A stretch of 64,000 nucleotides of DNA from positions 1-64,000 of IMG/VR virus record IMGVR_UViG_3300039451_000027, one strand, 5' to 3'. Within the stretch, counting starts at the first letter, position 1. Every line of letters begins with the position of its first letter. The translations under genes were made by a program, and so were the position numbers. The notes beneath the pieces are model-generated. The model was not told the DNA's origin, did no database searches, and worked only from the letters and a program-made list of their open reading frames with translations. The DNA comes from a virus. Shown here piece by piece: positions 6,456 through 63,689 of the stretch.

Positions 6456-6533
6456 GATTCCTCCTTTCTGCGACGGGGTGGGCGGTCGCCCTCCGAGTGT
6501 GATTGTGAAATCGGGTCAGCTTCCGAAATTGGG

Positions 6534-6803
6534 TCAGGGAATGGGGCGAACTTCGGGTGGCCACGTCTTCAAGACCTCCTCGGCCACTTCGTAGAGCTTC
6601 TTGCGATCGAGCCCCTCCTGGTCCTCGTCGTTGGCGAGGGCGAGCGACACGATCGCGGTGAGCTCAGCGTCGCTCAGCAGCGAGGCGTGTCCGATCCCGG
6701 CGTGCGAATCTTGCGCCAGGATCGACCACTGTCCTTCGGAGTTCGGCAGGTCGCGCGTGGCGACCAGTACCGTGTCCTCCATTATCAGCGTCATGTGGAT
6801 CAT
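6534..6803 (-). CDS. hypothetical acidic protein (89 aa)
   Basis: Track ORF 6534..6836; AAGGAGG 6 nt upstream of ATG 6803 favours the shorter form. Confidence 0.6.
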   Translation of the reverse strand: MIHMTLIMEDTVLVATRDLPNSEGQWSILAQDSHAGIGHASLLSDAELTAIVSLALANDEDQEGLDRKKLYEVAEEVLKTWPPEVRPIP

Positions 6804-6897
6804 GTCAACCTCCTTTTCCGGAGGGCGACCGTTCACCCCGTCGCACTTTAAAGGTGAAGAGTACGGCTGTCGCGGGCGGAGTTACGGCTCTCACGCT

Positions 6898-6964
6898 GCG
6901 GCTCCCGCAATAGGATTGCGGGAGCCGCGACAATTGCTCCCGCAATAGGATTGCGGGAGCCGCG
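6898..6964. repeat. tandem duplicated perfect hairpin (GCTCCCGCAAT-AGG-ATTGCGGGAGC x2)
   Basis: Copy 1 is at 6901-6929 (stem extendable to 14 bp from 6898). Copy 2 is at 6936-6964, after the 6-nt spacer ACAATT. The pair sits directly downstream of the stop of gene 6965..7216. Confidence 0.85.
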
Positions 6965-7216
6965 TCAGCTGCTGCCGAGCTGCTCGTTCCGGAGGACGTG
7001 CTCGGGCAGGCCGTCCTCTGGGCGGTAGCCCGCCATGTCGATTGCCGCCTCGCCCTTGGCCGGGCGGACGACGATCCTCATCAGGCGGTTTGCCCGCACG
7101 ATCATCCGGAGCTGCTCCGCTGTGACGATTGTGAAGGACCCGTACGCAGCGTCCTCCTCGGTCCACACGCGGTACCACCCGGCGTGGTCGTGCGGTCTGT
7201 ACTCGATCGGCTTCAT
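6965..7216 (-). CDS. hypothetical protein (83 aa)
   Basis: Track ORF; TAGGAGG SD upstream of the ATG. Confidence 0.65.
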   Translation of the reverse strand: MKPIEYRPHDHAGWYRVWTEEDAAYGSFTIVTAEQLRMIVRANRLMRIVVRPAKGEAAIDMAGYRPEDGLPEHVLRNEQLGSS

Positions 7217-7225
7217 TTGGACCTC

Positions 7226-7495
7226 CTAGTTAGTGAAGAGTACGGCTGTCGCGGTGCGGCTCTGGGGAGCCGTGGGCGCCTTCTTCTTCGGCGCCGCGAT
7301 CTCGGCGTCCGTCGCGATCATCCCGAGCACGGCCTCCTGCGTCAGCACCTTGAAAACGCTCTCCTTGAGGTTGGGAAACAGCTCGTCGAGGACCTCCACC
7401 TGCTTGGGCGTGAGCGGCTCGGAGTCCTCGATCTCGACGCTGAACGTCCCGTTCCCGTTGTCGTGCAGTCGGTTGGCCTTGATCGTGACTGTCAT
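7226..7495 (-). CDS. hypothetical protein (89 aa)
   Basis: Track ORF; GAGGAGG directly upstream of the ATG. The last 13 codons are the conserved intergenic motif read as protein. Confidence 0.6.
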   Translation of the reverse strand: MTVTIKANRLHDNGNGTFSVEIEDSEPLTPKQVEVLDELFPNLKESVFKVLTQEAVLGMIATDAEIAAPKKKAPTAPQSRTATAVLFTN

Positions 7496-7554
7496 CCTCC
7501 TCGGTTAGTGTAGTACGGCTCCCACGTTCGGCCAGATTCCGCTGGCCGACCCGG

Positions 7555-7860
7555 TTACTTTCCCACCTGGTACCACGCGTTGCACGTGTAGACCTCGCTC
7601 ATCCACTTGGCGATCGCGGCTATCTTGCCCCAGAACTCGAGGTCCTCCGTCCGGGATGCGTGCAGGTATTTGTCGATTGCGTAATCGAACGAGTGACCCA
7701 TCGCGAGGTCCCAACCGATGATGTCGTACCAGCTCATGTACCAGTGCGTGGGATGGCACTCCACCCCGAAGTGGACGCAGATGTCCATGTCGACCTGGGC
7801 GAGCTTGATCGGCCCGAGCTCGGGTCGGTCCCGATACGAGAGTTGAAAGCAGTTCGGCAT
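7555..7860 (-). CDS. hypothetical protein (101 aa, Trp/His-rich)
   Basis: Track ORF; AGGAGG SD. Confidence 0.65.
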   Translation of the reverse strand: MPNCFQLSYRDRPELGPIKLAQVDMDICVHFGVECHPTHWYMSWYDIIGWDLAMGHSFDYAIDKYLHASRTEDLEFWGKIAAIAKWMSEVYTCNAWYQVGK

Positions 7861-8089
7861 ATTATCCTCCTATTGAGAAGAGTACGGCGCCCGCGTTCGG
7901 TCCCCAGCAAAACGCATTGGGGACCTCTCGTGAGGGCTCCCGACCGAGTCAGGTAGATTTGAGAAGCCTGGAGTCGTCGCACGGCACTAGCCGATCAAAG
8001 CCTGTCCGTCACGCTGACTTCTCGCGGCTCCCTTGATCTGCTCGGTACGGCTCTCACGTTCCCGGTGGTCGGCCCACCGGGAGGCCGGG

Positions 8090-8296
8090 CTACTTGATCG
8101 ACGCGAGCTTGCCGTCGACCATCTTTCCCCTCGCGTACCACGCGTGCGGCTCGGGCGACCAGGGACCCTCGAGCGTGACGGTCCCGTTCTCGGGCGGGGG
8201 ACCGCCGAGGCCGGGCTCGAAGACCTCCACCGCCTCGCCCTTGGCCAGCGCCTCCTTCAGCGCCTTTTTCGTTCGAAAGTTCGGACGTACGTACAT
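8090..8296 (-). CDS. hypothetical protein (68 aa)
   Basis: Track ORF; AGGAGG SD. Confidence 0.6.
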   Translation of the reverse strand: MYVRPNFRTKKALKEALAKGEAVEVFEPGLGGPPPENGTVTLEGPWSPEPHAWYARGKMVDGKLASIK

Positions 8297-8530
8297 TGGA
8301 CACCTCCTGGGTTAGAATAGTACGGCTTCCCCAATCCGGATTGGAGAGGCATTGCGACGGGTCCGGGCAGCCGCCCTCCGCTGGAAGGTGGGTGCTTGCG
8401 GAATCTTGAGTTGGTGTCGACTTGGTGCACTGATGTGACTCGGGACGGAGGGCGGCCGTCCGGACCCGCCTAGTGAAGAGTACGGCGCTCGCGGATGCCC
8501 TCTGGACAGATCGGGCGATCTTGTGTCAGA

Positions 8531-24155: not shown

Positions 24156-24965
24156 ATGAAGCGACTCTGGAAAAAGCCCTGGTTGTGCGTGCATGCGGAC
24201 GGTGACGTAACGCCGCTACCCGCCCCCGCAAATCCTCCGCCGCCGCCCAAGACGGCAGACCCGCCGGTCGTGGACCCGGAGGACGCTCCTACGATCAGCC
24301 AGAAGAAACTCAACGCCGTCCTCGCCGAGGAGAAGCGGAAGTTTCAGGAGACTCAGAAGAAGCAGCTCGAGCAGCTACAGGAGCTCGAGCGGTCCAAGGG
24401 CCTCTCAGACAAGGAGCGGGAGCAGCTCTCCAAGCAGATCGAGGACTTGAAGACCTCGGTCATGACGAAGGAGCAGCTCGCAGCAAAGGAAAAAGAGAAG
24501 CTTCAGAGCGAGCTCAGCGCGCAGATCAAGGCGGAGAAGGAGAGGGCTGACAAGGCGTGGCAGCTCTACACCGAGTCTACGATTGAGAGGGCGATCACCG
24601 ATGCCGCGGCGAGGAACGAGGCGTTCCGCCCGAGCCAGGTCGTCACCTTCCTGGTTGGTAAGACTCACCTCGTCGAGGACAAGGACGGCAGCGGGAATTC
24701 GACCGGGACGTTCACTCCCAGGGTCAAGTTTCCCGACGTCAAGGACGGCAAGCCGATCGTCCTCGATCTGACGGTCGAGGAGGCCGTCAAGCGTATGAAG
24801 GACCTCCCTGACGAGTACGGCAACCTCTTCAAATCAGGTGTCGCAGGTGGATTAGGTGGTACTTCCGGTGTGGACGGGGGATCTGGCGCTGGCCAGGGAC
24901 CGCCCGAAGATCCGGAGGCGTACCGCAAGTGGCGTGAGAACCAAAGAAAGATGGGGAAACTATGA
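24156..24965 (+). CDS. putative scaffolding protein
   Basis: Pro-rich N-terminus, then a charged coiled coil (EEKRKFQETQKKQLEQLQELERSK..). Lies directly upstream of the capsid gene. Confidence 0.6.
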   Translation: MKRLWKKPWLCVHADGDVTPLPAPANPPPPPKTADPPVVDPEDAPTISQKKLNAVLAEEKRKFQETQKKQLEQLQELERSKGLSDKEREQLSKQIEDLKTSVMTKEQLAAKEKEKLQSELSAQIKAEKERADKAWQLYTESTIERAITDAAARNEAFRPSQVVTFLVGKTHLVEDKDGSGNSTGTFTPRVKFPDVKDGKPIVLDLTVEEAVKRMKDLPDEYGNLFKSGVAGGLGGTSGVDGGSGAGQGPPEDPEAYRKWRENQRKMGKL

Positions 24966-26380
24966 CTCTGAAACTCCGTGCGGCCCGTCAATTTCTGACG
25001 GTCCACACACAGGACACGACGGCCTTCAATCCGGCGTTGTGGGCCAATGAATCTCTCGCAATCCTCGAAGAAAACATGATCGCGGCTGGCTTGGTACACC
25101 GTGACTTCGAACCTGTCCTTGCGAAGTACGGCGACGTTGTGCACACTCGTCGGCCGGGTCAGTTCAAGGCGAAGCGGAAGGATCTGAGCGATTCCGTGAC
25201 CGTCCAGGATGCGACGGCGACCGACGTGCAGGTTCCGCTCAACCAGCACGTGCACACAAGCTTCCTTATCCGCGACGGTGAGGAGAGCAAGGCCTTCAAG
25301 GATCTCGTCCAAGTCTACCTGGCTCCGTCGATGCTCGCACAAGCGAGGTTCATTGACCAGGTGGTCCTCGGACAGTACCACCGGTTCCTGGGCAACGCCT
25401 ACGGCGGCCTCGGTCAGCTCACGGGATCGGTTGGGCGGCAGTACATCCTCGGCACCCGCCAAAAGATGAACCAGAACAAGGCCTACATCGACGGCCGCAA
25501 CATGGTCCTGAACCCGGCAACTGAGGCCGCGCTGCTCAACCTCGACCTGTTCACCGCGGCCTACGCCGTCGGCGATCAGGGCACGGCGCTCAAGCGGGCC
25601 TGGCTCGGCCAGAAGCTCGGCTTCGACATGTACATGTGCCAGAACATGGCGAGCGTCAACACTGGAGCCACGACCCTGTCGGGCACGGTCAGCAACTCCG
25701 GCGGGTACGCGGCCGGGACGACGGTCCTGACGGTGACCGGCTTTACGGGTGCTGTGACGACTGGCGACTGGCTCACGATCGGTGGGGACTACTACCCGCA
25801 CCGCATCTCGGCTCATACGGAGACGCTGGGCAATACGACGTCCATCACGCTCGACACGCCGCTCATTAATGCGGTACTCAATGCGGCGGCGGTGACGACC
25901 TACCAATCGGGCGCGACCGTCACGAACGGCCCGTACTCCGGGACCACGACTCCCACCTGGTCGAAGGAGATCACAGTCACCGGCCTGAGCGTCGCCCCGC
26001 AGGTTGGTCAGATCGTGACGTTCGGCACCTCCCTCACGGACCCGATCTACACGATCGTGGATGTTGACGGAACGGCCGGCTTTACCCTCGATCGGCCGCT
26101 CGAGAAATCGGATGTGGCGAACAGCGCCGTGGTCCACCTCGGGCCGGCCGGCAACTACAACATGGCGTTTCATCGGAATGCCTTGGCGCTGGTCGTGCGG
26201 CCGCTGGCTCAGCCGATGCCGGGGACCGGGGCCCTGTCCGCAGTGGTGAATCACAACAACCTCTCGATGCGGGCGACGATCACCTACAACGGATCGTCGC
26301 AGGGCCACCTCGTGACCCTCGACATGCTCTGCGGCATCGCGCTCCTGGATGCGAATCTTGGCGCGCTCATGCTTGGGTGA
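24962..26380 (+). CDS. major capsid protein (HK97-fold type) with inserted domain
   Basis: 472 aa. C-terminal ..NYNMAFHRNALALVVRPLAQP..LSMRATITYNG..VTLDMLCG.. is typical of coat proteins. A strong hairpin follows. Confidence 0.8.
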   Translation: MTLKLRAARQFLTVHTQDTTAFNPALWANESLAILEENMIAAGLVHRDFEPVLAKYGDVVHTRRPGQFKAKRKDLSDSVTVQDATATDVQVPLNQHVHTSFLIRDGEESKAFKDLVQVYLAPSMLAQARFIDQVVLGQYHRFLGNAYGGLGQLTGSVGRQYILGTRQKMNQNKAYIDGRNMVLNPATEAALLNLDLFTAAYAVGDQGTALKRAWLGQKLGFDMYMCQNMASVNTGATTLSGTVSNSGGYAAGTTVLTVTGFTGAVTTGDWLTIGGDYYPHRISAHTETLGNTTSITLDTPLINAVLNAAAVTTYQSGATVTNGPYSGTTTPTWSKEITVTGLSVAPQVGQIVTFGTSLTDPIYTIVDVDGTAGFTLDRPLEKSDVANSAVVHLGPAGNYNMAFHRNALALVVRPLAQPMPGTGALSAVVNHNNLSMRATITYNGSSQGHLVTLDMLCGIALLDANLGALMLG

Positions 26381-26393
26381 TCCGTAGGATTTA

Positions 26394-26419
26394 GACCGCC
26401 GCGCTTTTGCGCGGCGGTC
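26394..26419 (+). terminator. hairpin after capsid gene (attenuator/terminator-like, no U-tract)
   Basis: GACCGCCGCGC-TTTT-GCGCGGCGGTC, an 11-bp perfect stem. Confidence 0.5.
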
Positions 26420-26434
26420 GCGAGAGGAGGAATA

Positions 26435-27001
26435 ATGCTAGGACAAGCTCTCCCCGGCAGTGACGGCAATTGGTTCAGCATGGTGATCGGGGCCATTGTG
26501 ACGATGGTCCTCGGCTACCTGAACTGGAAGCAGAGGCGGCAGGACGCGATCATAAATCAGAATCAGAAGGACCTCAACTACCACATGGAAGAGATCAGGA
26601 GCCTCAGGAAGTCGGAGGAGAACTGCAGGGTAGAGCTTGCCGCAATCAAGGCGAAGCAGGACCGTGACGGGAGCGTGGTGGCCTCTGGCTTCGTGATGGC
26701 GAATCACGCGGGTATCATAATGGACGCCGATCCGAACGTCTGCACACTCGTGGGATGGAAGAGGCGGGAGCTCATCGGCCAGCCCATCCACATGCTGATA
26801 CCGGGCGACTTGCGGGAGCAGCACGAGGAGAAGTTCAGGGAGGCAGTTGCGAGCCCCTATGAAGTTCGGAGGTATTTGATAGATGCTCATATCCTCCGTC
26901 GCGACGGTGAACTCGTCGCTGTACACATTGGTCTGGTGGGGTGGGGTCAGAATTCAGAGACCACCTTCTTGGCGATTATTAGGCCGAGGGTAAAATTGTG
27001 A
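26435..27001 (+). CDS. membrane-anchored PAS-domain protein (188 aa)
   Basis: GAGAGGAGG SD; TM helix WFSMVIGAIVTMVLGYLNW; coiled coil. PAS-like ..GIIMDADPNVCTLVGWKRRELIGQPIHMLIPGDLREQHEEKF..DGELVAVHIGL... No kinase domain. Confidence 0.65.
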   Translation: MLGQALPGSDGNWFSMVIGAIVTMVLGYLNWKQRRQDAIINQNQKDLNYHMEEIRSLRKSEENCRVELAAIKAKQDRDGSVVASGFVMANHAGIIMDADPNVCTLVGWKRRELIGQPIHMLIPGDLREQHEEKFREAVASPYEVRRYLIDAHILRRDGELVAVHIGLVGWGQNSETTFLAIIRPRVKL

Positions 27002-27363
27002 ACATCTTAATCGTTGATGACGATCCGGTGCTCCAGGAGCTGCTCTGCTCGTTTTTCGCAAGTCGCGGACACTGCGTCCGGCGAGCCTCCAATGGTGTTG
27101 AGGCATTGGCGATGGTGGAGACCGCGCTCAAGTTGGATGTCGTATTGCTTGACGTCCTCATGCCCGGACTGTCGGGAAACCAGTTCATCAAGGCGGTGAG
27201 GGGTGGAGGGGACACCATCCCGATTGTCGTACTCTCGGGTTATAGGAACGAGCTCGAGGCCCACTTGGTCGATCAGGTTGACGCCGTCGTTGACAAGCCT
27301 CCGAGCATGGACAACTTGCTCAAGGTTGTCGAGTCGGCAGTCAGCAGGAGTGCCTCACCTTGA
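26998..27363 (+). CDS. stand-alone response-regulator receiver (CheY-like, 121 aa)
   Basis: GTG overlaps the PAS gene stop. ILIVDDD, VVLLDVLMPGLSG (acceptor Asp), VVLSG, VVDKP (Lys): all canonical REC positions. Confidence 0.85.
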   Translation: MNILIVDDDPVLQELLCSFFASRGHCVRRASNGVEALAMVETALKLDVVLLDVLMPGLSGNQFIKAVRGGGDTIPIVVLSGYRNELEAHLVDQVDAVVDKPPSMDNLLKVVESAVSRSASP

Positions 27364-27806
27364 ATATTCGAGCCATGCTCTACGTCCTGAAGAGGAAGTT
27401 TGCGTATCCGATCGCCGTCTATTTGCGATTGCCCGATCAGGTTGACCTCGAGACGGGGCGACAGAATTTGAGCGAGGTGAAGTACACGATTAGGCGGGCA
27501 ATTGTCTTGCCGTTCAGTGTGTACGCAAAGCTCTTTCAGAAGATTGCCGACTTCAAGTACGGTGGCGACCTGGACGTTGAGCGGAGGGTGTTCATAATAG
27601 ATCGCGCGGACCTGCCGGTTGTGATCTCGGATGACAAGTTCAGCCTCGTCTTCGATGGCCGTCGGTATGGCATCGAGAAGCTCGAGAACTTTGAGCGGGA
27701 TGCGGCTTACGTGGTGGTGGGAAAGCGGGTTACCAATCCCAGCGCCCCTGAGCAGGTGGACGTCGTACTGCACGATTGGCTCTTCTTGTCGGATGGTGTG
27801 ACTTGA
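27360..27806 (+). CDS. putative head-tail joining protein
   Basis: TTG start overlapping the REC stop. Call rests on position between capsid and tail genes only. Confidence 0.5.
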   Translation: MNIRAMLYVLKRKFAYPIAVYLRLPDQVDLETGRQNLSEVKYTIRRAIVLPFSVYAKLFQKIADFKYGGDLDVERRVFIIDRADLPVVISDDKFSLVFDGRRYGIEKLENFERDAAYVVVGKRVTNPSAPEQVDVVLHDWLFLSDGVT

Positions 27807-28271: not shown

Positions 28272-29375
28272 ATGTTGAGATTACTGTCGCGTGCACCGTT
28301 TCTGACGGTCCACGCCCCGATTGACCTGAAGTATGCGAACATCCGCATACGCGATGGGGCGCTCTACAACGGGACTCTGAATCCCACGGCGCAGGCCAAT
28401 CCGTCTGTCACTCCGACGGTCAACGCGACCGGCGGCGGGTCGTCCGGCGGCAACCTGCAAGCCGGAACGTACTACGTGAAGTACACCTTCGTGACCTCGA
28501 TTGGGGAAACCCTCCCGAGTACGGAGAGCACGCAGTTCACCGACGTCGCTGGAGACATCCCGCGAGTGACGTTCCCGTCGCTGCCGCTTGGCGCGACCTC
28601 GATCAACTTGTACCTCACTCCCACCAACGGCGCGAGCAATTCCGAGACGCTGTACGCGACCGGAATCACGACCACGACGTACGACCTCCAGGCTCCGTAC
28701 GTGGCCGGTGGAGTGGCTCCTCCGGTCCTCAATACCACTGGCGGCTATGCGGCCGGGACCTCGACCATCGCGGTGACCGGTTTTACCACCGCGCTGTCGA
28801 ATGGTATGCAGTTCACGATCGGCGGCGACAAGCCGATCTACAAGATCACGAGCCACAGCGAGACGCTGGGGAATACGACCTCGATCACCTTCACTCCTTC
28901 GCTCGACAAGGCCGTCTACTCGGGCGAGGCGATCACGGTCGGGCCTCACATCATCCAGATCAAGGTCGGTGACGGCAATGCGAACTGGACCGAGAAGCAG
29001 GCTCGCGTGTACGTGAAGGATCGCGGCCTCCTCGACACGGTGCGCAATGGCGATGACGAGCCGGTCGAGCTCAAGCTCGAGTTCACCTACGACTTCCTCA
29101 CGGCGGTCTCTGGCTCGGGCGTCCCGACCGTTGAGGATGCGATCAAGCAGCGGGGTGAGGCGTCTGGCTGGGTGACCACGTCAGCCGATCCGTGCGAGCC
29201 GTACGCCGTCGACATCGAGATCGAGTACGTTCCACCGTGCGCTTCTGTCCAGCGCGAGGTGGTCCTCTTCAAGGACTTCCGCTGGGAGGACCTTGCGCAC
29301 GACCTCAAGCAGTCGCAGATTTCGCTCACGGGTAAGTGCAACGTCAAGCAGCCCATCACCACGAGGGCGGCCTAA
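28272..29375 (+). CDS. putative major tail tube protein with inserted Ig/FN3-like and capsid-shared domains
   Basis: Lies just before the chaperone pair. ..IQIKVGDGNANWTEKQARVYVKDRGLLDTVRNGDDEPVELKLEF.. resembles tube proteins. Confidence 0.55.
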   Translation: MLRLLSRAPFLTVHAPIDLKYANIRIRDGALYNGTLNPTAQANPSVTPTVNATGGGSSGGNLQAGTYYVKYTFVTSIGETLPSTESTQFTDVAGDIPRVTFPSLPLGATSINLYLTPTNGASNSETLYATGITTTTYDLQAPYVAGGVAPPVLNTTGGYAAGTSTIAVTGFTTALSNGMQFTIGGDKPIYKITSHSETLGNTTSITFTPSLDKAVYSGEAITVGPHIIQIKVGDGNANWTEKQARVYVKDRGLLDTVRNGDDEPVELKLEFTYDFLTAVSGSGVPTVEDAIKQRGEASGWVTTSADPCEPYAVDIEIEYVPPCASVQREVVLFKDFRWEDLAHDLKQSQISLTGKCNVKQPITTRAA

Positions 29376-29429: not shown

Positions 29430-30167
29430 ATGAAGAAGATCCTGTGTATTTTGTGCCTCGCGGCTTTCGCAATCATGGCCGTTGGAGCGAGGCCCCTTCA
29501 GCTTCCCGCGCCTCAGTCGAACGTCTGGTTCGTCAATGCCTGGTGCGGCTTTGATGAGGACGGAGTGAGGAAGCAGTATTACATCCAAGGCGCAAGGAAC
29601 GCAGACTCCTCCGACGACTACGACCTATCCGTCGGGTATGCCCCCTCGATCTCTTGCGAGGTCGTCACGAGCATGACGACAGTGGGTTCAGATTACCTCG
29701 CTTCCGGCCAAGTCGGAAATCCGCACGTCACCAATGGGACCTTCATGGACGATGGTGACAATATGCTCATTATCTACTGCGTTGGCGACTGGTCGAGCTA
29801 CACGATCAACATTGCCCCAACAGCCGGGATCAATGCGGCGAATCGGATCAGCTGGCCAACGAACTTGATCCAGTCTGGCAATACCGCAGCTGTTATGTGC
29901 CAGTTCAACTTCTTCCAGGGTAAGAGCGGTGACTATACCTGGAAGCTCTACGTATGGGACAATTCCAATACGCGGCACTTCGTCGGGTCCGTTGGGCTCG
30001 GCGATGCCAGGAACGCGAACTACCTCTACAAGGGAATGTTCACAATCTTCGGGACCTTCGATGCTAGCTGGCTCGAAAGCAACGGGAATGCGGCTTTCAC
30101 GATCGTTGCCGTAGATTCCCTCGGCAATGAGGAGGAGGTCCTGAATTGGACCCAGGCCCAAGACTGA
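29430..30167 (+). CDS. secreted protein of unknown function (moron-like)
   Basis: Own AAGGAG SD after the hairpin; signal peptide MKKILCILCLAAFAIMAVGA; lower GC than its neighbours. Confidence 0.65.
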   Translation: MKKILCILCLAAFAIMAVGARPLQLPAPQSNVWFVNAWCGFDEDGVRKQYYIQGARNADSSDDYDLSVGYAPSISCEVVTSMTTVGSDYLASGQVGNPHVTNGTFMDDGDNMLIIYCVGDWSSYTINIAPTAGINAANRISWPTNLIQSGNTAAVMCQFNFFQGKSGDYTWKLYVWDNSNTRHFVGSVGLGDARNANYLYKGMFTIFGTFDASWLESNGNAAFTIVAVDSLGNEEEVLNWTQAQD

Positions 30168-46581: not shown

Positions 46582-46782
46582 ATGATCGACTGGAACCGAC
46601 TGATGGTCCTCGCGGGGGCCATCTTCCTAACCCTCAATGCGAAGTACCAGTGGTTCGCGCCGACCCAGGCAAGCGAGCTCGCAAGGAACGCGATCGAGTT
46701 TGCGCAGCTCGCGGTCGGTGCGTACCTCTTCTTCGCCGTCAAGCCGCCGCCAAAGATTGAGATCGGCGACGGCAAAGATTAA
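46582..46782 (+). CDS. holin-like two-TM protein (66 aa)
   Basis: GAGGAG SD; TM1 LMVLAGAIFLTLNA, TM2 FAQLAVGAYLFFAV; charged C-terminus. Confidence 0.45.
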   Translation: MIDWNRLMVLAGAIFLTLNAKYQWFAPTQASELARNAIEFAQLAVGAYLFFAVKPPPKIEIGDGKD

Positions 46783-46792
46783 GGAGACAACC

Positions 46793-48796
46793 GTGATTCG
46801 TAAATTTCTGTCCGTCCTGACGATAGTGGCCATCGCCTCCAGCTTCGTCCTCGCCGATCCAGCGAGCCCGACCAAGCGAGGAAAGGGCTACAAGCAGCCG
46901 TCCGCCGAGGTCCGGGCCAAGCTGCACGCTGAGGCGTTCAAGCGGCACGGCTTCAGGATGCACTACTTCGTCAAGAATGCGACGCCGCCAGCGAAATTCG
47001 ACTGTCGCGACATGGGCTGGGTGCCGCCAGTCGACGACCAGGGGCAGTGCGGCGACTGCTTCGGCGTCTCGACCTCCGACCTGTGCACGATGGCGTTCAT
47101 CAAGGCTGGCTACCAGAAGGCCGACGGGAGCTTCCACATATCCACGCAGTACGGCCTCGACTGCGGGGCTTACGATGGCGGGTGCAACGGCGGAAACGGC
47201 GAGCAGGTCGCAGACTGGATGAAGAAGACCGGCTTTCCTGCGGACAGGTACGTGGACGACAGCGGAAAGTCCGCGAGCGACTACCCGGCCTACACCGCGA
47301 GCGCCGGTCAGTGCCGCCTCCCCTCCGGGGCCAAGATGTGGAAGATCGCGGACTGGGGCTATGCTACCAGCGACCAAAGCGACCGCGCAGCGACCCCGGC
47401 CGAGATCAAGGCCGCCATGATGCAATACGGACCGCTGAGCATCGCGCTCGACGCGAGCGACGGATGCTTCGATGGTTCTGGCGACGTCTGCGAGGACATC
47501 GGCACCAACGTCGACCACGAGATTACGATGGTCGCCTGGGACGACAGCAAGGGCAAAGCTGGGGCCTTCTTAGTGCGCAATCAATGGAGCAAGGACTGGG
47601 GCGACCAGGGCTACAGGTGGATTGGCTACGGGACCTTCAAGAACGTGGTGAGCGTCTTCTGGATGACCGTTACTCCACAGCCCGCGCCCCCGCCTCCTCC
47701 TGGACCTACTCCAGGGACCGCGACCCTCACGAGCGTGACCGCGACATTCAGTGACGGCTCGACGCAGACGCTCGGAGGCACTGGACTGACCGCGGACCAG
47801 CTCAAGGCAATGACGATTCCGCAGCTGATGGACTTCATCAACGCCGGAAAGTCGAAGCCGCCGTGCCCCAAGCCGATGCCACCAGCTGAAGGTGGCATGT
47901 CCTACCTTGACCGAAAGATCGCGGAAGCCTACGCAGCGGAAACTGCGGAGGGCAAGGCTGAGAAGGCGATGGCAATCTCTCGGCAGTGCTGGGGGGCGGC
48001 CGCGAGGATCCTCCAGGACGATTGGACGAAGTCAATCGGCGAGTTCAGGAAGTTGGTCGACGGCTACTACGATCCTCTCCCCAAGCTGAAGGTCGCGATC
48101 GTATCCTACCTCGATGCCCTGATCGAGTCGGACCGCGAGTGGACCTCTGCCAGGCGATCCCTGGCGAGCACGGCGATGCAGTCGGTAGCTTCCGGAATCG
48201 ACAAGGCGGTAAAAGCGCCAGCCGTCGGAGAGCGAAAGAGTTGGAGTCAATTGATGCTTCCCAAAGGCGCCGAGAAGTACCAGTCCGCAGAGTTCACTCA
48301 GGCGGTCTCCCACGACCGGTCCAACGCCCCCGCGATTCGGAGGGTCCCGATCAAGGAGGTCGACAGAAAGTGGCAACAGTCCGGGGGCATGGACGGGGTC
48401 GCCGGCGTGACGAGCGATAAGTACAGGTCGCTCCCGCGAGCTCCCGAGGAGTTCGTGGGCAAGGTCGCGGTCACCTTCAAGCACGAGGGGAGGGAATACG
48501 AGCAGGAGGAGCTCGCGCTAAGGAGGCGATACGCCGACGGCAGCAGGTTCGACGACGTTCTCTCGTACAACGGCGTGGTCTTCGAGCACAGGAAGCGAGA
48601 GAAGGTGGGCGGGAAGTGGACCTCCGGAATAGTGTACTCAGACGCCGGAGCGAGGCCACCTGGCTACGAAGGGTTGACGACAACCTGCGCCGAGTGCCAC
48701 GAGAAGGCGGGTACCGGAATTTACGCAATGGGGCTCGCGCCGGGCGGCGATGGGGTCCTTAGCGATCCTCTTCCCTGGCGACTCTGGAAGAAGTGA
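46793..48796 (+). CDS. secreted papain-family (C1) cysteine peptidase fused to ~330-aa C-terminal region ending in CxxCH
   Basis: GTG after AAGGAG; signal peptide. DDQGQCGDCFG (Gln/Cys), VDHEITMVAWD (His), VRNQWSKDWGDQGY (Asn/Trp). Pro-rich linker; ..TTCAECHEKAG.. near the end. Confidence 0.8.
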   Translation: MIRKFLSVLTIVAIASSFVLADPASPTKRGKGYKQPSAEVRAKLHAEAFKRHGFRMHYFVKNATPPAKFDCRDMGWVPPVDDQGQCGDCFGVSTSDLCTMAFIKAGYQKADGSFHISTQYGLDCGAYDGGCNGGNGEQVADWMKKTGFPADRYVDDSGKSASDYPAYTASAGQCRLPSGAKMWKIADWGYATSDQSDRAATPAEIKAAMMQYGPLSIALDASDGCFDGSGDVCEDIGTNVDHEITMVAWDDSKGKAGAFLVRNQWSKDWGDQGYRWIGYGTFKNVVSVFWMTVTPQPAPPPPPGPTPGTATLTSVTATFSDGSTQTLGGTGLTADQLKAMTIPQLMDFINAGKSKPPCPKPMPPAEGGMSYLDRKIAEAYAAETAEGKAEKAMAISRQCWGAAARILQDDWTKSIGEFRKLVDGYYDPLPKLKVAIVSYLDALIESDREWTSARRSLASTAMQSVASGIDKAVKAPAVGERKSWSQLMLPKGAEKYQSAEFTQAVSHDRSNAPAIRRVPIKEVDRKWQQSGGMDGVAGVTSDKYRSLPRAPEEFVGKVAVTFKHEGREYEQEELALRRRYADGSRFDDVLSYNGVVFEHRKREKVGGKWTSGIVYSDAGARPPGYEGLTTTCAECHEKAGTGIYAMGLAPGGDGVLSDPLPWRLWKK

Positions 48797-49487: not shown

Positions 49488-50174
49488 ATGTTCGATGTGA
49501 GTATCGCCGAGAGGATGGCGAGGGCCTGTGATCTTGCCTACTGGGCGGATTCTGAGAAGGTGGTCAAGGACCTCAGCGTCGAGCAAGCTCGCGTAATCAG
49601 CATGGCTGGCCACGGCGCGCTGGTCGCCGAGTCAGAGGCTGAGACGATCGTGGCCTTTCGGGGGAGCGCCTCGATCCGGGACTGGATCGACGACGGCCAG
49701 TTCTACCTGGCGTCTATTCCGCCCTACTTCGGCAGGGTCCACGTGGGCTTCTCCCGAGTCCTGATCAGCCTGTATGCCGAGCTCTCGCCGTACCTCCAGC
49801 GGGGCAACGTCGCGATCACTGGACACAGCCTCGGCGCGGCGGTAGCCGTGCTCGCCTCCTGCTCCGTCCCGGTGCTGTCGAAGCCGCTCTACCTGTTCGG
49901 GTGCCCGAAGGTCGGGGATCGGCAGTTCGCGGACTCGTACCAGCACAGGGTATACCGCGTCATCAACGACCTCGACCCGGTGTGCCACGCCCCGTTCGAC
50001 TGGCTCTATCGGCACGTGGGCGAGGAGGTGTGGTTGCCGGAGCTCGGTCCGCGGAGCCTGTGGGGCAGGCTCAAGCGAGTGTGCTCCCAACTGCTGCGCG
50101 GACTGCCGAGGACGGTGATGACGGCGGTCGAGCACCACCTCATATCCAAGTACGTCGATGCCCTGTCAAGTTGA
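49488..50174 (+). CDS. class-3 lipase / alpha-beta hydrolase
   Basis: VAFRGSASIRDWIDD, VHVGF, ITGHSLGAAVA (nucleophile elbow), NDLDPVCHAP. Confidence 0.75.
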   Translation: MFDVSIAERMARACDLAYWADSEKVVKDLSVEQARVISMAGHGALVAESEAETIVAFRGSASIRDWIDDGQFYLASIPPYFGRVHVGFSRVLISLYAELSPYLQRGNVAITGHSLGAAVAVLASCSVPVLSKPLYLFGCPKVGDRQFADSYQHRVYRVINDLDPVCHAPFDWLYRHVGEEVWLPELGPRSLWGRLKRVCSQLLRGLPRTVMTAVEHHLISKYVDALSS

Positions 50175-58261: not shown

Positions 58262-59227
58262 ATGTCGCAGACGGTGTTGGCAAGTATTCCGCTATCGTCG
58301 ATCCGGGAGAATCCGGTCGCGCTGCGGAACGTCAATCGAATGAGCCCCACCTATAAGGAGCTCGTGGACAGCGTGAAGCGGTCGGGCATCCTCAACGCGA
58401 TCCTCGTCCGCGAGATCGTGGACCCCCGAACGAAGGTCGTGGTCTACGGTCTGATCGACGGACTGCACCGCTTCAGTGCCGCTCAGGACGCTGGGCTCAC
58501 GGAGATTCCGGCGCAGGTCCGCAGCATGGAGGATGCGGCGGTGCTGGAGGCGCAAGTCATCGCAAACGTCCAGAAGGTGGAGACTCGCCCGGTCGAGTAC
58601 TCGAAGCAACTCGTGAGAATCTTAGCCCAGAATCCTCTGCTGACCCTCGACGAGCTGTCGTCGCGGTTGGCAAAGTCTCCGACGTGGTTGAACGAGCGAC
58701 TCGGCCTCGTGAAGCTCGACGAGGCGATCGGCAAGCTAGTGGACGAGGGGCGGATCTGCCTGAGCAATGGCTACGCCATTGCGAAGCTCAGTGCAATCGC
58801 TCCTGAGGAGGTGTCGAACTACGTCGATCGAGCGATGGTGATGAGCCCCAACGAATTCGTCCCGACCATCACCTCGCGCGTCAAGGAGCTGAAGGAGCTG
58901 CGTCGCCAGGGACGCGACGCGACGCCAGCGACCTTCCAGCCCGTCGCCCACATCCGCAAGCTTGGCGAGCTCAAGGAGGAGATGGAGAATCCGAAGGTCG
59001 GTCCGGTCCTCATCAAGGAGCTGAACGTCAAGACGCCGAAGGAAGCCTTCGAGTTGGGCGTCAAGTGGGCGCTGCATATGGACCCGGCGAGCATCGAGCT
59101 TCAGAAGCAGAAGGACGCCGAGCGCAAGGCGAAGCTCGAGGCCGAGAAGCTGAAGCGGAAAGAGGAGAGGGAGAAGAAGTCCGAGGAGGAGGCGCGGAAG
59201 GCCGCTGCCGACGTGACGAAACTCTGA
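58262..59227 (+). CDS. ParB/Srx N-terminal-domain protein (ParB-like, 321 aa)
   Basis: ..ILVREIVD..VVYGLIDGLHRFSAAQDAGLTEIPAQV..; Lys/Glu-rich C-terminal tail. Confidence 0.75.
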   Translation: MSQTVLASIPLSSIRENPVALRNVNRMSPTYKELVDSVKRSGILNAILVREIVDPRTKVVVYGLIDGLHRFSAAQDAGLTEIPAQVRSMEDAAVLEAQVIANVQKVETRPVEYSKQLVRILAQNPLLTLDELSSRLAKSPTWLNERLGLVKLDEAIGKLVDEGRICLSNGYAIAKLSAIAPEEVSNYVDRAMVMSPNEFVPTITSRVKELKELRRQGRDATPATFQPVAHIRKLGELKEEMENPKVGPVLIKELNVKTPKEAFELGVKWALHMDPASIELQKQKDAERKAKLEAEKLKRKEEREKKSEEEARKAAADVTKL

Positions 59228-62849: not shown

Positions 62850-63689
62850 ATGCCGCTTGCTGAATCAGAACTGAAGCCCTTCGAAGTCCCGATGAGCGAA
62901 ATTTTCAGCGACGAGGAATTCAACTGCCGGGGCAAAATTGCGCCTTACGACGTCATAGACCTCGTTCGCTCCATTGACCAGAACGGCTTGCAGCAGCCGA
63001 TCATCGTCCAACCGTTCGACAAGCACCCGCCGCACAAGTACCGGATCGTGAGCGGTCACCGAAGGCACGCGGCCTTCCGGGTTCTCGAGAGGCCGACCAT
63101 TCCGGCGATCATAAAGGACGGGCTCTCCGATCTCGACGCGAGGAAGTGGAACCTGGAGGAGAACCTCAAGCGTCAGAACCTCAACGTCCTCCAGGAGGCG
63201 AGGGCCATTGCACACTTCAAGAATGCTGGCTACACGCAGGAGGACCTGGCCAGGGAGCTCGGGGTGAGCCGTGGTTGGGCGCAGGTGAGGTTCATGACTC
63301 TCGAACTGCCCCCGGAGATTCAGGAGGAGGTGGCAGCCGGCTTCCTCACGCAGCAGCAGATCAAGGACATCTCCCACATGCCCCGGGAGGATCAGTTCGT
63401 CGCGGTCAAGAGGATCAAGCTCGCGCGGGAGAAGGGCGAGGCGCCCGTCAAGATCAGGAAGAAGAACAGGAATCCCCTCATCAAGAAGGTGAGGCTCAGG
63501 GATGAAATATTCGAGATGCAAGAGATGATTCAGTCGGTCATCGGAAATAACTTCGGCACGAGGATGCTCGCCTGGGCGGCCGGAGAGATATCTGATCTAG
63601 ACGCATTGCGAGACCTCCGGGAGCTCGCGAAGGAGAAGGGTGTACCGTATGAAATTCCTGCAGATATCCTGCAAGCAGCCAAATTGTAA
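62850..63689 (+). CDS. ParB-family protein (N-domain + HTH, 279 aa)
   Basis: ..YRIVSGHRRHAAFRVL.. (GxRR box), then the HTH GYTQEDLARELGVSRGWAQVRF. Confidence 0.85.
   Translation: MPLAESELKPFEVPMSEIFSDEEFNCRGKIAPYDVIDLVRSIDQNGLQQPIIVQPFDKHPPHKYRIVSGHRRHAAFRVLERPTIPAIIKDGLSDLDARKWNLEENLKRQNLNVLQEARAIAHFKNAGYTQEDLARELGVSRGWAQVRFMTLELPPEIQEEVAAGFLTQQQIKDISHMPREDQFVAVKRIKLAREKGEAPVKIRKKNRNPLIKKVRLRDEIFEMQEMIQSVIGNNFGTRMLAWAAGEISDLDALRDLRELAKEKGVPYEIPADILQAAKL

Follow-up and report, generated by a model that had tools for sequence, protein, structure and literature searches.

The DNA analysed here is a 64,000-nucleotide stretch from the genome of a large uncultured phage (positions 1 to 64,000 of the IMG/VR record IMGVR_UViG_3300039451_000027), referred to as the window. 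Between its capsid gene and its head-tail joining genes lie two small genes, the first encoding a protein of 188 amino acids with one predicted transmembrane helix and a C-terminal PAS domain and the second a stand-alone receiver (REC) of 121 amino acids. By sequence and predicted fold the PAS domain resembles the haem-binding PAS domains of bacterial oxygen sensors, and the receiver keeps a complete phosphorylation site. The pair is tentatively read as a membrane signalling module that has no kinase of its own, is expressed along with the virion proteins late in infection and uses phosphodonors of the host. Positions are those of the window unless a contig is named, and the locus is laid out as follows.

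24962..26380, plus strand: major capsid protein gene (P22-coat/HK97-like), the upstream flank (Pfam P22_CoatProtein 8.9e-25, phrog_283 4e-55)
26394-26419, plus strand: G+C-rich hairpin with an 11-bp perfect stem and a UUUU loop, 13 nt past the capsid stop
26426-26430, plus strand: Shine-Dalgarno sequence GGAGG, 4 nt upstream of the PAS-gene ATG at 26435
26435-27001, plus strand: gene of the PAS protein, 188 amino acids (open reading frame and profile matches)
26998-27001, plus strand: GTGA overlap of 4 nt between PAS stop and REC start, read from the sequence
26998-27363, plus strand: gene of the stand-alone receiver, 121 amino acids, GTG start (PF00072 match)
27360-27363, plus strand: TTGA overlap of 4 nt, in which the REC stop meets the start codon of the following head-tail gene, read from the sequence
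27360-27806, plus strand: conserved head-tail module gene g148, the downstream flank (tblastn synteny)

Because of the 4-nt overlaps at the REC start and at the g148 start, the pair is tied into the late operon at either end. Judged from the sequence, the GTGA overlap is a case of translational coupling. The N-terminus of g148 as read from the TTG start (MNIRAMLYVLKRKFAYP) agrees with the N-termini of its homologues. The hairpin folds together with its 66-nt context at -30.1 kcal/mol (z -3.3), and none of 200 shuffled sequences folded as well; no T-run (U-tract) follows its stem and it was not called by the terminator scan. On the plus strand no promoter-like site was found in the interval that separates the pair from the capsid gene (26381-26434), and no terminator was called after the pair. 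Both open reading frames have a coding signature that is normal for this phage genome, with a G+C content of 0.75 and 0.72 at third codon positions (GC3) and 0.38 at second positions (GC2). A first-pass annotation of this DNA had pointed out a strong hairpin after the capsid gene, a Shine-Dalgarno sequence in front of the 188-residue gene and a GTG overlapping its stop, and all three are borne out.

Within the PAS protein, the following parts can be told apart.

26471..26521, plus strand: predicted transmembrane helix, residues 13-29 (WFSMVIGAIVTMVLGYL), mean Kyte-Doolittle hydropathy 1.95 over 17 residues
26525..26668, plus strand: long charged helix, residues 31-78, continuous in the AlphaFold model at pLDDT 84-90
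26687..26986, plus strand: PAS domain, residues 85-184 (profile, PDB and Foldseek matches)
26822..26824, plus strand: codon of His130, candidate proximal haem ligand by alignment to the EcDOS histidine

Profile searches matched the protein to PF00989 (PAS; 3.5e-8, 33.9 bits, cut-off 22.6), PF13426 (PAS_9; 5.8e-8, 33.4 bits, cut-off 27) and TIGR00229 (1.5e-12, 47.7 bits, cut-off 22.9). An AlphaFold2 model based on an alignment of eight sequences (mean pLDDT 83.7) consists of a single helix over residues 13-78 and a PAS fold over residues 85-184 at a pLDDT of about 90, and Foldseek related this fold to solved PAS domains with TM-scores up to 0.85. The transmembrane segment is flanked by a charge of -1 on its N-terminal and +3 on its C-terminal side, and membrane topology can be read from such flank charges by the positive-inside rule. 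Because of these charges the C-terminus is predicted to be cytoplasmic, and the short N-terminus would lie outside the cell. In the model, helix 31-78 is a candidate for a dimerisation element or coiled-coil stalk; at best 6 of its 14 a/d heptad positions are hydrophobic, and because of this poor pattern the coiled coil is unproven. A histidine of the DHp or HPt type was also sought in the helix, and H50 of the motif YHMEEIR was rejected as it is not conserved in homologues. Neither the PAS protein nor the receiver matched HisKA, HATPase, HPt or output domains among the Pfam and NCBIfam profiles, in agreement with the earlier statement that histidine-kinase and output domains are missing from both. 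From the architecture first proposed, a transmembrane helix, a coiled coil and a PAS-like domain, the membrane helix and the PAS domain are supported by profiles and model, and the coiled coil is not.

The PAS domain was compared with solved structures by sequence and by predicted fold. In a single-sequence search of the PDB, the best solved relatives were the haem domains of Escherichia coli DosP/EcDOS (3e-6) and then of FixL. When a family profile of eight members was used, the 14 best distinct sequences were all haem-PAS domains (DosP at 5e-20, FG214 and FixL at about 5e-15, the weakest at 2e-13), whereas the best PAS domain of another kind reached 1e-9 and the non-haem second PAS domain of DosP (PAS-B) only E=2. 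Foldseek, run with the model against the PDB, likewise gave haem-PAS domains for all of its top 32 hits. The segment MLIPGDLREQHEEKF aligns gap-free with MLIPRDLRPAHPEYI of EcDOS, which puts His130 opposite the histidine of the EcDOS motif LRPAHPEY. We take this residue to be His77, the proximal haem ligand in the published numbering, which was checked in the alignment via Asp40, Trp53, Met95 and Arg97. In haem-PAS domains of this class the F-alpha helix carries the proximal histidine. His130 is invariant in eight homologues, forms one of seven invariant columns of the family and is its sole invariant polar residue, located exactly at the proximal-ligand position. By sequence and predicted fold, the domain is assigned to the FixL/DosP class of haem-PAS domains, and on the same grounds it seems fairly probable that it binds haem.

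An alternative keeps the module as such and takes its PAS domain for something other than a haem or gas sensor, binding another ligand or none and using the conserved histidine structurally. The distal or FG-loop residues that contact the ligand are Met95 and Arg97 in EcDOS and Arg220 in FixL. At the aligned positions, Met95 is replaced by Tyr147 and Arg97 by Ile149. Because these EcDOS residues are not conserved, the phage domain could differ in its ligand chemistry and even in whether it binds haem; Arg145 and Arg146, located 3-4 residues upstream of the aligned distal positions, could act as substitutes. The motif around the histidine is H-x3-F, as opposed to H-x2-Y in FixL and DosP, and to our knowledge PAS cofactors are not reliably predictable from sequence alone. 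Against these arguments stand the gap in E-values, put at five orders of magnitude, between haem-PAS domains and the other solved PAS domains, the exclusive presence of haem-PAS domains among the 32 best structural neighbours and the position of the only invariant polar residue, so that a PAS domain of a different kind is regarded as unlikely.

The receiver matches PF00072 (Response_reg) at 2.8e-19 (69.8 bits, cut-off 30.2) over profile positions 1-110 of 111. Aligned with CheY, D7/D8(/D9) correspond to D12/D13, D52 to D57, S80 to T87 and K100-P101 to K109-P110, and the codons of this site are located as follows.

27016-27024, plus strand: D7-D9
27151-27153, plus strand: D52, the position of CheY D57
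27235-27237, plus strand: S80
27295-27297, plus strand: K100

Among six phage receivers D7, D8, D52, K100 and P101 are invariant. As far as can be judged from the alignment, the phospho-acceptor site is complete, and phosphorylation of the protein is predicted. The first-pass annotation had described a receiver with all catalytic positions retained, which fits this alignment, and with PAS and Response_reg both matched above their gathering cut-offs and the PAS fold modelled, its domain assignments stand. Its term "CheY-like" is justified in the generic sense of a receiver and does not extend to the CheY family, which is absent from the protein's top 25 NCBIfam matches, all of them far below cut-off. 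The position of the CheY switch residue Tyr106 is occupied by valine, and no che genes were found in the window. No curated regulator family in NCBIfam was matched above its cut-off; the closest were the RssB receiver and the DVU0259/DivK-type single-domain family. Its nearest cellular relatives are stand-alone receivers that adjoin histidine kinase genes.

The surroundings of the pair were compared in relatives of the capsid module, which comprised about 80 IMG/VR contigs and two contigs from metagenome-assembled genomes (MAGs) with a capsid identity of 42-62%. These relatives share the gene order Ad1, scaffold, capsid, g148, g154, g367. No PAS domain was found by tblastn and hidden Markov model searches in the approximately 80 relatives. 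The capsid stop is less than 140 bp away from g148 in 43 of 70 relatives, which leaves the slot between the two genes empty, and in the other 27 the slot measures 275-1042 bp and contains one or two genes for small, long-helix proteins that span the membrane once. The slot proteins form several unrelated families, some with an N-terminal transmembrane segment and others with a tail anchor, and none matched an annotated PHROG. Examples were seen at L035 7448-7708, L037 2487-2768, L002 7403-7917 and L088 7438-7647, and one of the families ends with a conserved RPC motif. Since 27 of the 70 relatives fill the slot with such genes, it represents a hot spot for small membrane proteins, of which the PAS and receiver pair is the most elaborate occupant. 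The pair is an accessory insert: capsid and head-tail genes are adjacent in 43 of the 70 relatives and the PAS domain is absent from all of the roughly 80, in line with the insertion proposed in the first reading.

Other features which had been taken to delimit the insert did not hold. Of 82 related loci, 69 have a strong hairpin directly after the capsid stop, irrespective of whether a gene comes next (L001-L090; stem 10-16 bp, G+C-rich, loop usually 4 nt). Because these loci have an equivalent whatever follows, the hairpin belongs to the capsid gene and not to the insert, and its use as an insert boundary has to be given up. It is probably an attenuator, an mRNA 3'-end stabiliser or a transcript-end element that raises capsid mRNA relative to the downstream genes. 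The supposed contrast in G+C content also disappears, with 57% for the pair against a mean of 60.8 +/- 3.7% for all genes (z about -1) and still lower values of 54-55% for the core genes g148 and g154 just downstream. A G+C or codon sign of recent transfer was considered and rejected, the pair being within the range of the genome. The designation of the pair as a moron is correct with respect to its position between genes that are adjacent in relatives and fails with respect to an own promoter and terminator, the G+C contrast and the REC stop, which overlaps a core gene.

An exhaustive HMMER search identified further small proteins in which a transmembrane helix is followed by a PAS domain with the histidine (P0065, P0070, P0095, P0139, P0161 and P0172). 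The pair itself recurs on three other contigs (L100, L092 and L102), where identity is 32-52% and the two genes overlap or abut. On L100 a PAS protein of 184 amino acids and a receiver of 119 amino acids overlap by 4 nt and are followed by an open reading frame with a virion-protein repeat domain, and on L092 the PAS gene also precedes the receiver gene. The four PAS proteins with a receiver neighbour are the four most alike in the family and have the motif AVxSPxEVRR in common. PAS proteins without a receiver were found on L098 beside the portal gene, on L101, and on L091 beside Dit and tail genes.

Two further observations concern these contigs. The closest PAS homologue (L102 206-712, 52% identity) contains an in-frame TAG, after which reading continues to the normal end with the receiver next; the TAG could be a sequencing error, the mark of a pseudogene or a case of stop-codon reassignment. 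L091 encodes at 6511-8366 a protein of 227 amino acids with a transmembrane segment and a coiled coil, which has weak matches to Rz-like spanin and "hol-like chemotaxis" PHROGs, followed by a protein of 391 amino acids with several transmembrane segments that ends in the same His-bearing type of PAS domain.

Receivers were also found next to membrane-helix proteins that have no PAS domain. Three contigs of the same capsid group (L018 6291-6951, L022 8289-8973 and L021) carry, between g148 and g154 and therefore one slot downstream, a transmembrane-helix protein of 75 amino acids and an overlapping receiver of 149-165 amino acids (Pfam 3e-10); this insert also holds a beta-rich protein of 94 amino acids. 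On the unrelated viral contigs L004 (5741-6360) and L005/L006 (5564/5654-6312), a transmembrane-helix protein overlaps by 4 nt with a receiver that starts with MNILIVDD. In L004 they directly precede TerS/TerL, and in L005/L006 they are located two genes upstream of the endolysin gene (phrog_894 in L006). The 4-nt start/stop overlap of the receiver with its partner is common to L100, L004, L005 and L006. Wider pattern scans with receiver alignments led to the same six viral loci only. The order of a small membrane-helix protein and a single-domain receiver is conserved in at least four lineages, with tight coupling of the genes and a location that is always in late regions, which suggests that the two proteins work together. 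As PAS-only and PAS-less versions exist, PAS and receiver might represent alternative or additive inputs with the membrane helix as the common element.

The constant association with late and structural regions, be it the head-tail operon, the position before terminase or the vicinity of lysis genes, and the translational coupling to a core head-tail gene could also point to an accessory role in morphogenesis. The helix protein would then tether or time head-tail joining or packaging at the membrane, with the receiver as a pseudo-receiver adaptor that acts independently of phosphorylation. Pseudo-receivers usually lose phospho-site residues, whereas D7, D8, D52 and K100-P101 are invariant in the six phage receivers. 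Moreover, the genes are absent from most relatives and the pair is therefore not needed for assembly, which makes this explanation improbable. Still less can be said for a functionless, decaying remnant of a captured bacterial operon of PAS-kinase and regulator from which the kinase core has disappeared. PAS-kinases and kinase-linked receivers are the nearest cellular kin of the two parts and would agree with such an origin, as would the in-frame stop in the L102 homologue. An intact pair of open reading frames at 32-52% identity on several contigs, a GC3 of 0.72-0.75 like that of the neighbours, the preservation of all catalytic residues and a PAS protein that starts with a dedicated transmembrane helix instead of a kinase stump speak against decay, and a remnant is considered very improbable.

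The exact PAS and REC proteins were also found on an ENA contig of 97,525 bp, the ends of which fit a circle of about 97.16 kb (position 771 of the window corresponds to contig position 86667, and 62850 to 51582). The scan for gene content covers about 83 of these 97 kb, with contig positions 62.4-76.7 kb outside. Virion genes in the inspected DNA comprise terminase, portal, Ad1 adaptor, scaffold, capsid and tape measure, and genes for handling of DNA include primase-helicase, Dam and N4/N6 methylases, an SNF2 helicase and an exonuclease. Genes for DNA polymerase A, a class II ribonucleotide reductase (RNR), ThyX, dUTPase and a sigma factor are present as well. Within the scanned DNA, Pfam searches of 30 large open reading frames and precomputed Pfam annotation detected no HisKA/HATPase kinase and no HPt protein. 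Neither an integrase nor a repressor was seen in these roughly 83 kb, and together with the phage's own DNA polymerase, RNR and sigma factor this renders the previously suggested expression from a prophage unlikely.

Several other features of this genome were recorded. Two proteins with ParB-N/HTH_ParB domains are encoded at 58262-59227 and 62850-63689, in a phage in which no integrase was seen, and would fit either a plasmid-like carrier state or a role in DNA modification. Beyond the window, the class II RNR gene of this phage (1040 amino acids; L104 15837-18959) contains a LAGLIDADG_3 domain, suggestive of an intein or of an inserted homing endonuclease, and is followed by the phage sigma factor gene at L104 20685. 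No tRNA genes were found in the window.

A search for the host gave no assignment. With blastn, 6 kb around the pair had no match among GenBank phages, and with tblastn against the same phages the PAS protein had none and the receiver eight weak ones, mostly in unannotated records; no close isolated relative came to light. Capsid and terminase searches found only distant matches (26-31% identity) in phages of actinobacteria, cyanobacteria, Dinoroseobacter and Vibrio, and the DNA polymerase, queried for host inference, had no match. The two MAG matches (Saccharibacteria and Dehalococcoidales) were dismissed as a clue to the host, as they are probably binned phage contigs.

A complete phospho-site in a protein without an output domain, in a phage in which no kinase was found in the scanned DNA, could be explained by a phosphate sink or decoy, an idea already present in the first-pass annotation. 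The receiver would compete with one of the host's response regulators for its kinase, which might be FixL-like or belong to an envelope-stress pathway, and drain or block this pathway late in infection, and the membrane PAS protein would merely recruit it to a membrane kinase, perhaps by heterodimerisation through the PAS domain or the helix. It would suit this explanation that the nearest cellular receivers stand alone beside histidine kinases, and the mirror image, half a two-component system consisting of AgrC without a regulator, is known from phage phiCDHM1 (PMC3901668). A sink does not account for PAS proteins of the same family in phages without a receiver, nor for receivers that are paired with PAS-less membrane-helix proteins. 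It also needs a high specificity for one kinase, whereas the phage receiver matches no particular regulator family. Overall, this role is possible and judged unlikely.

The reading that is preferred, with a probability of roughly 45%, remains a kinase-less membrane signalling module. The first gene product would be a small inner-membrane protein with one transmembrane helix, a probably dimerising cytoplasmic helix and a C-terminal PAS domain of the haem type, which would bind haem via His130 and report oxygen, another diatomic gas or the redox state. Because no histidine kinase or HPt protein was found in the scanned DNA of the phage, the receiver would obtain its phosphate from a kinase of the host or from acetyl phosphate, and in this way it would read the signalling or energy state of the host. 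Output is expected via protein-protein contacts at the membrane, since enzymatic and DNA-binding output domains are missing from both proteins. In the most economical model, the membrane-helix protein is the common effector and the receiver one regulatory input, with the PAS domain as a second, optional input that is fused in cis to the membrane-helix protein. Haem binding, topology, the phosphodonor from the host, contact between PAS protein and receiver and the effector role of the helix are all points that we infer. Candidates for the process under control are the timing of lysis, the exclusion of other phages and membrane-linked assembly, and gene positions near endolysin, near terminase and in the head-tail operon fit these three.

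Several points weigh against this module. The evidence for it lies wholly at the level of sequence, the distal residues of EcDOS are not conserved in the PAS domain, and the heptad pattern of the proposed stalk is weak. The negative result for kinases covers about 83 of the 97 kb of the phage genome, and no host was assigned from the distant capsid and terminase matches. Two of five complete receiver-bearing viral loci (L008 and L009) have no membrane partner. Comparisons of the N-terminus of the PAS protein with the slot proteins and with the helix proteins partnered by receivers were not significant by phmmer, BLASTP and hhalign. The sole hint was a match between the L006 helix protein and slot family A7 (hhalign probability 55%, E 1e-4), which covers the transmembrane segment alone. 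The idea of a common effector thus rests on architecture and gene order, because significant N-terminal homology was not found. A fusion of the PAS domain onto a resident slot gene was likewise rejected as a claim of homology and kept as an architectural parallel.

A more general form of the proposal is that tailed phages of several lineages use a membrane-anchored helix protein, optionally tipped with a haem-PAS domain for oxygen or redox and accompanied by a receiver phosphorylated by host kinases, to sense the oxygen, energy or signalling state of the host and to gate a late decision such as lysis or the admission of other phages. In this breadth the proposal is speculative and more doubtful than the module itself.

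Other genes of the window deserve mention. The capsid protein (24962-26380) and a protein of 367 amino acids encoded three genes downstream (28272-29375) have a segment of about 55 amino acids in common (GGYAAGT..TVTGFTGAV..G....IGGD.....I.AHTETLGNTTSIT), and tblastn with the 367-residue protein also found matches inside the capsid genes of several relatives; the segment may be a surface or decoration domain. In the middle of the tail module (29430-30167), a protein of 245 amino acids with a signal-peptide-like N-terminus (MKKILCILCLAAFAIMAVG), a G+C content of 55% and no PHROG match may represent another accessory gene. Just past the tail genes, a protein of 719 amino acids with a papain-family C1 peptidase domain (46637-48796; 1.9e-27) and a class-3 lipase (49488-50174; 2.2e-21) are encoded, which may have roles in attack on the cell envelope or in lysis. 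PHROG annotation of the open reading frames in the tail region of the window yielded nothing useful.

It is established that phages can listen in on quorum-sensing signals and on peptides. We know of no case in which direct sensing of oxygen or redox by a phage, or the reading of a host phosphorelay via a phage receiver, has been shown. If the predictions on haem and phosphorylation are true, the pair would provide a new class of input for phage decision-making and a function for many small membrane-helix genes of late operons. If they fail, it would still be a clean case of bacterial sensory and receiver domains domesticated in a virion operon. The module is small (188 + 121 amino acids), recurs in unrelated phages and offers His130 and Asp52 as biochemical handles.

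Searches of the full-text literature gave no description of a haem-type PAS domain of a phage, of a functional stand-alone phage receiver or of a pair of membrane-helix protein and receiver, which agrees with the earlier impression that a characterised precedent in a virion operon is lacking. Small phage genes of both kinds are already catalogued. Proteins of uncultured Caudovirales listed in BFVD as "PAS domain" (169-205 amino acids) are similarly small, consist of a helix and a PAS fold and are uncharacterised, and the receiver-containing PHROGs 731, 5982 and 20458 have no assigned function. The pairing of PAS domain and receiver, the assignment to the haem class and the membrane-helix partner were not described in the literature searched.

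Among characterised proteins, FixL, the rhizobial oxygen sensor kinase, and DosP/EcDOS, the oxygen-sensing cyclic di-GMP phosphodiesterase of E. coli, are the closest solved relatives of the PAS domain by sequence and predicted fold, with an aligned proximal histidine and a PAS domain in the cytoplasm, as is predicted for the phage protein. In both, the PAS domain is located upstream of an enzyme (kinase or EAL) and signals via a C-terminal helix, whereas the PAS domain of the phage is C-terminal and enzyme-free, its only helix leads N-terminally into the membrane and it lacks the distal Met and Arg. The FixL-FixJ system and other two-component systems have the same order of a PAS-sensor gene and a receiver gene in one operon, with intact receiver chemistry. 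They differ in possessing a HisKA/HATPase core and a DNA-binding output; since the phage sensor has neither a kinase core nor a conserved histidine in its helix, it is not expected to phosphorylate the receiver. CheY, DivK, Spo0F, CpdR and FixT, the last a receiver-type inhibitor of FixL in Caulobacter, are likewise lone receivers of about 120 amino acids that act by protein contact or as relay or sink. In contrast to these single-domain regulators, the phage receiver fits no curated family, lacks the aromatic switch and is partnered by a membrane-helix protein and not by a kinase or che genes.

With morons the pair has the location between genes adjacent in relatives in common, and it is unlike them in having no promoter or terminator of its own, no G+C contrast and a coupling to a core gene. 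Other sensors are already known to be carried by phages: VqmA-Phage of VP882 is a quorum-sensing receptor composed of a PAS and a helix-turn-helix domain (PMC10426928), phiCDHM1 encodes AgrB/D/C with a kinase and no regulator (PMC3901668), and pelagiphages carry histidine kinases (PMC9599517). Those proteins act as transcription factors or as kinases, and their genes lie in regulatory or accessory parts of temperate phage genomes or in clusters of auxiliary metabolic genes, whereas the present pair combines only a haem-type PAS domain and a receiver, is part of a virion operon and occurs in a genome where no lysogeny genes were found. As in these phages, a partial bacterial sensory pathway would be encoded by the virus and the rest supplied by the host.

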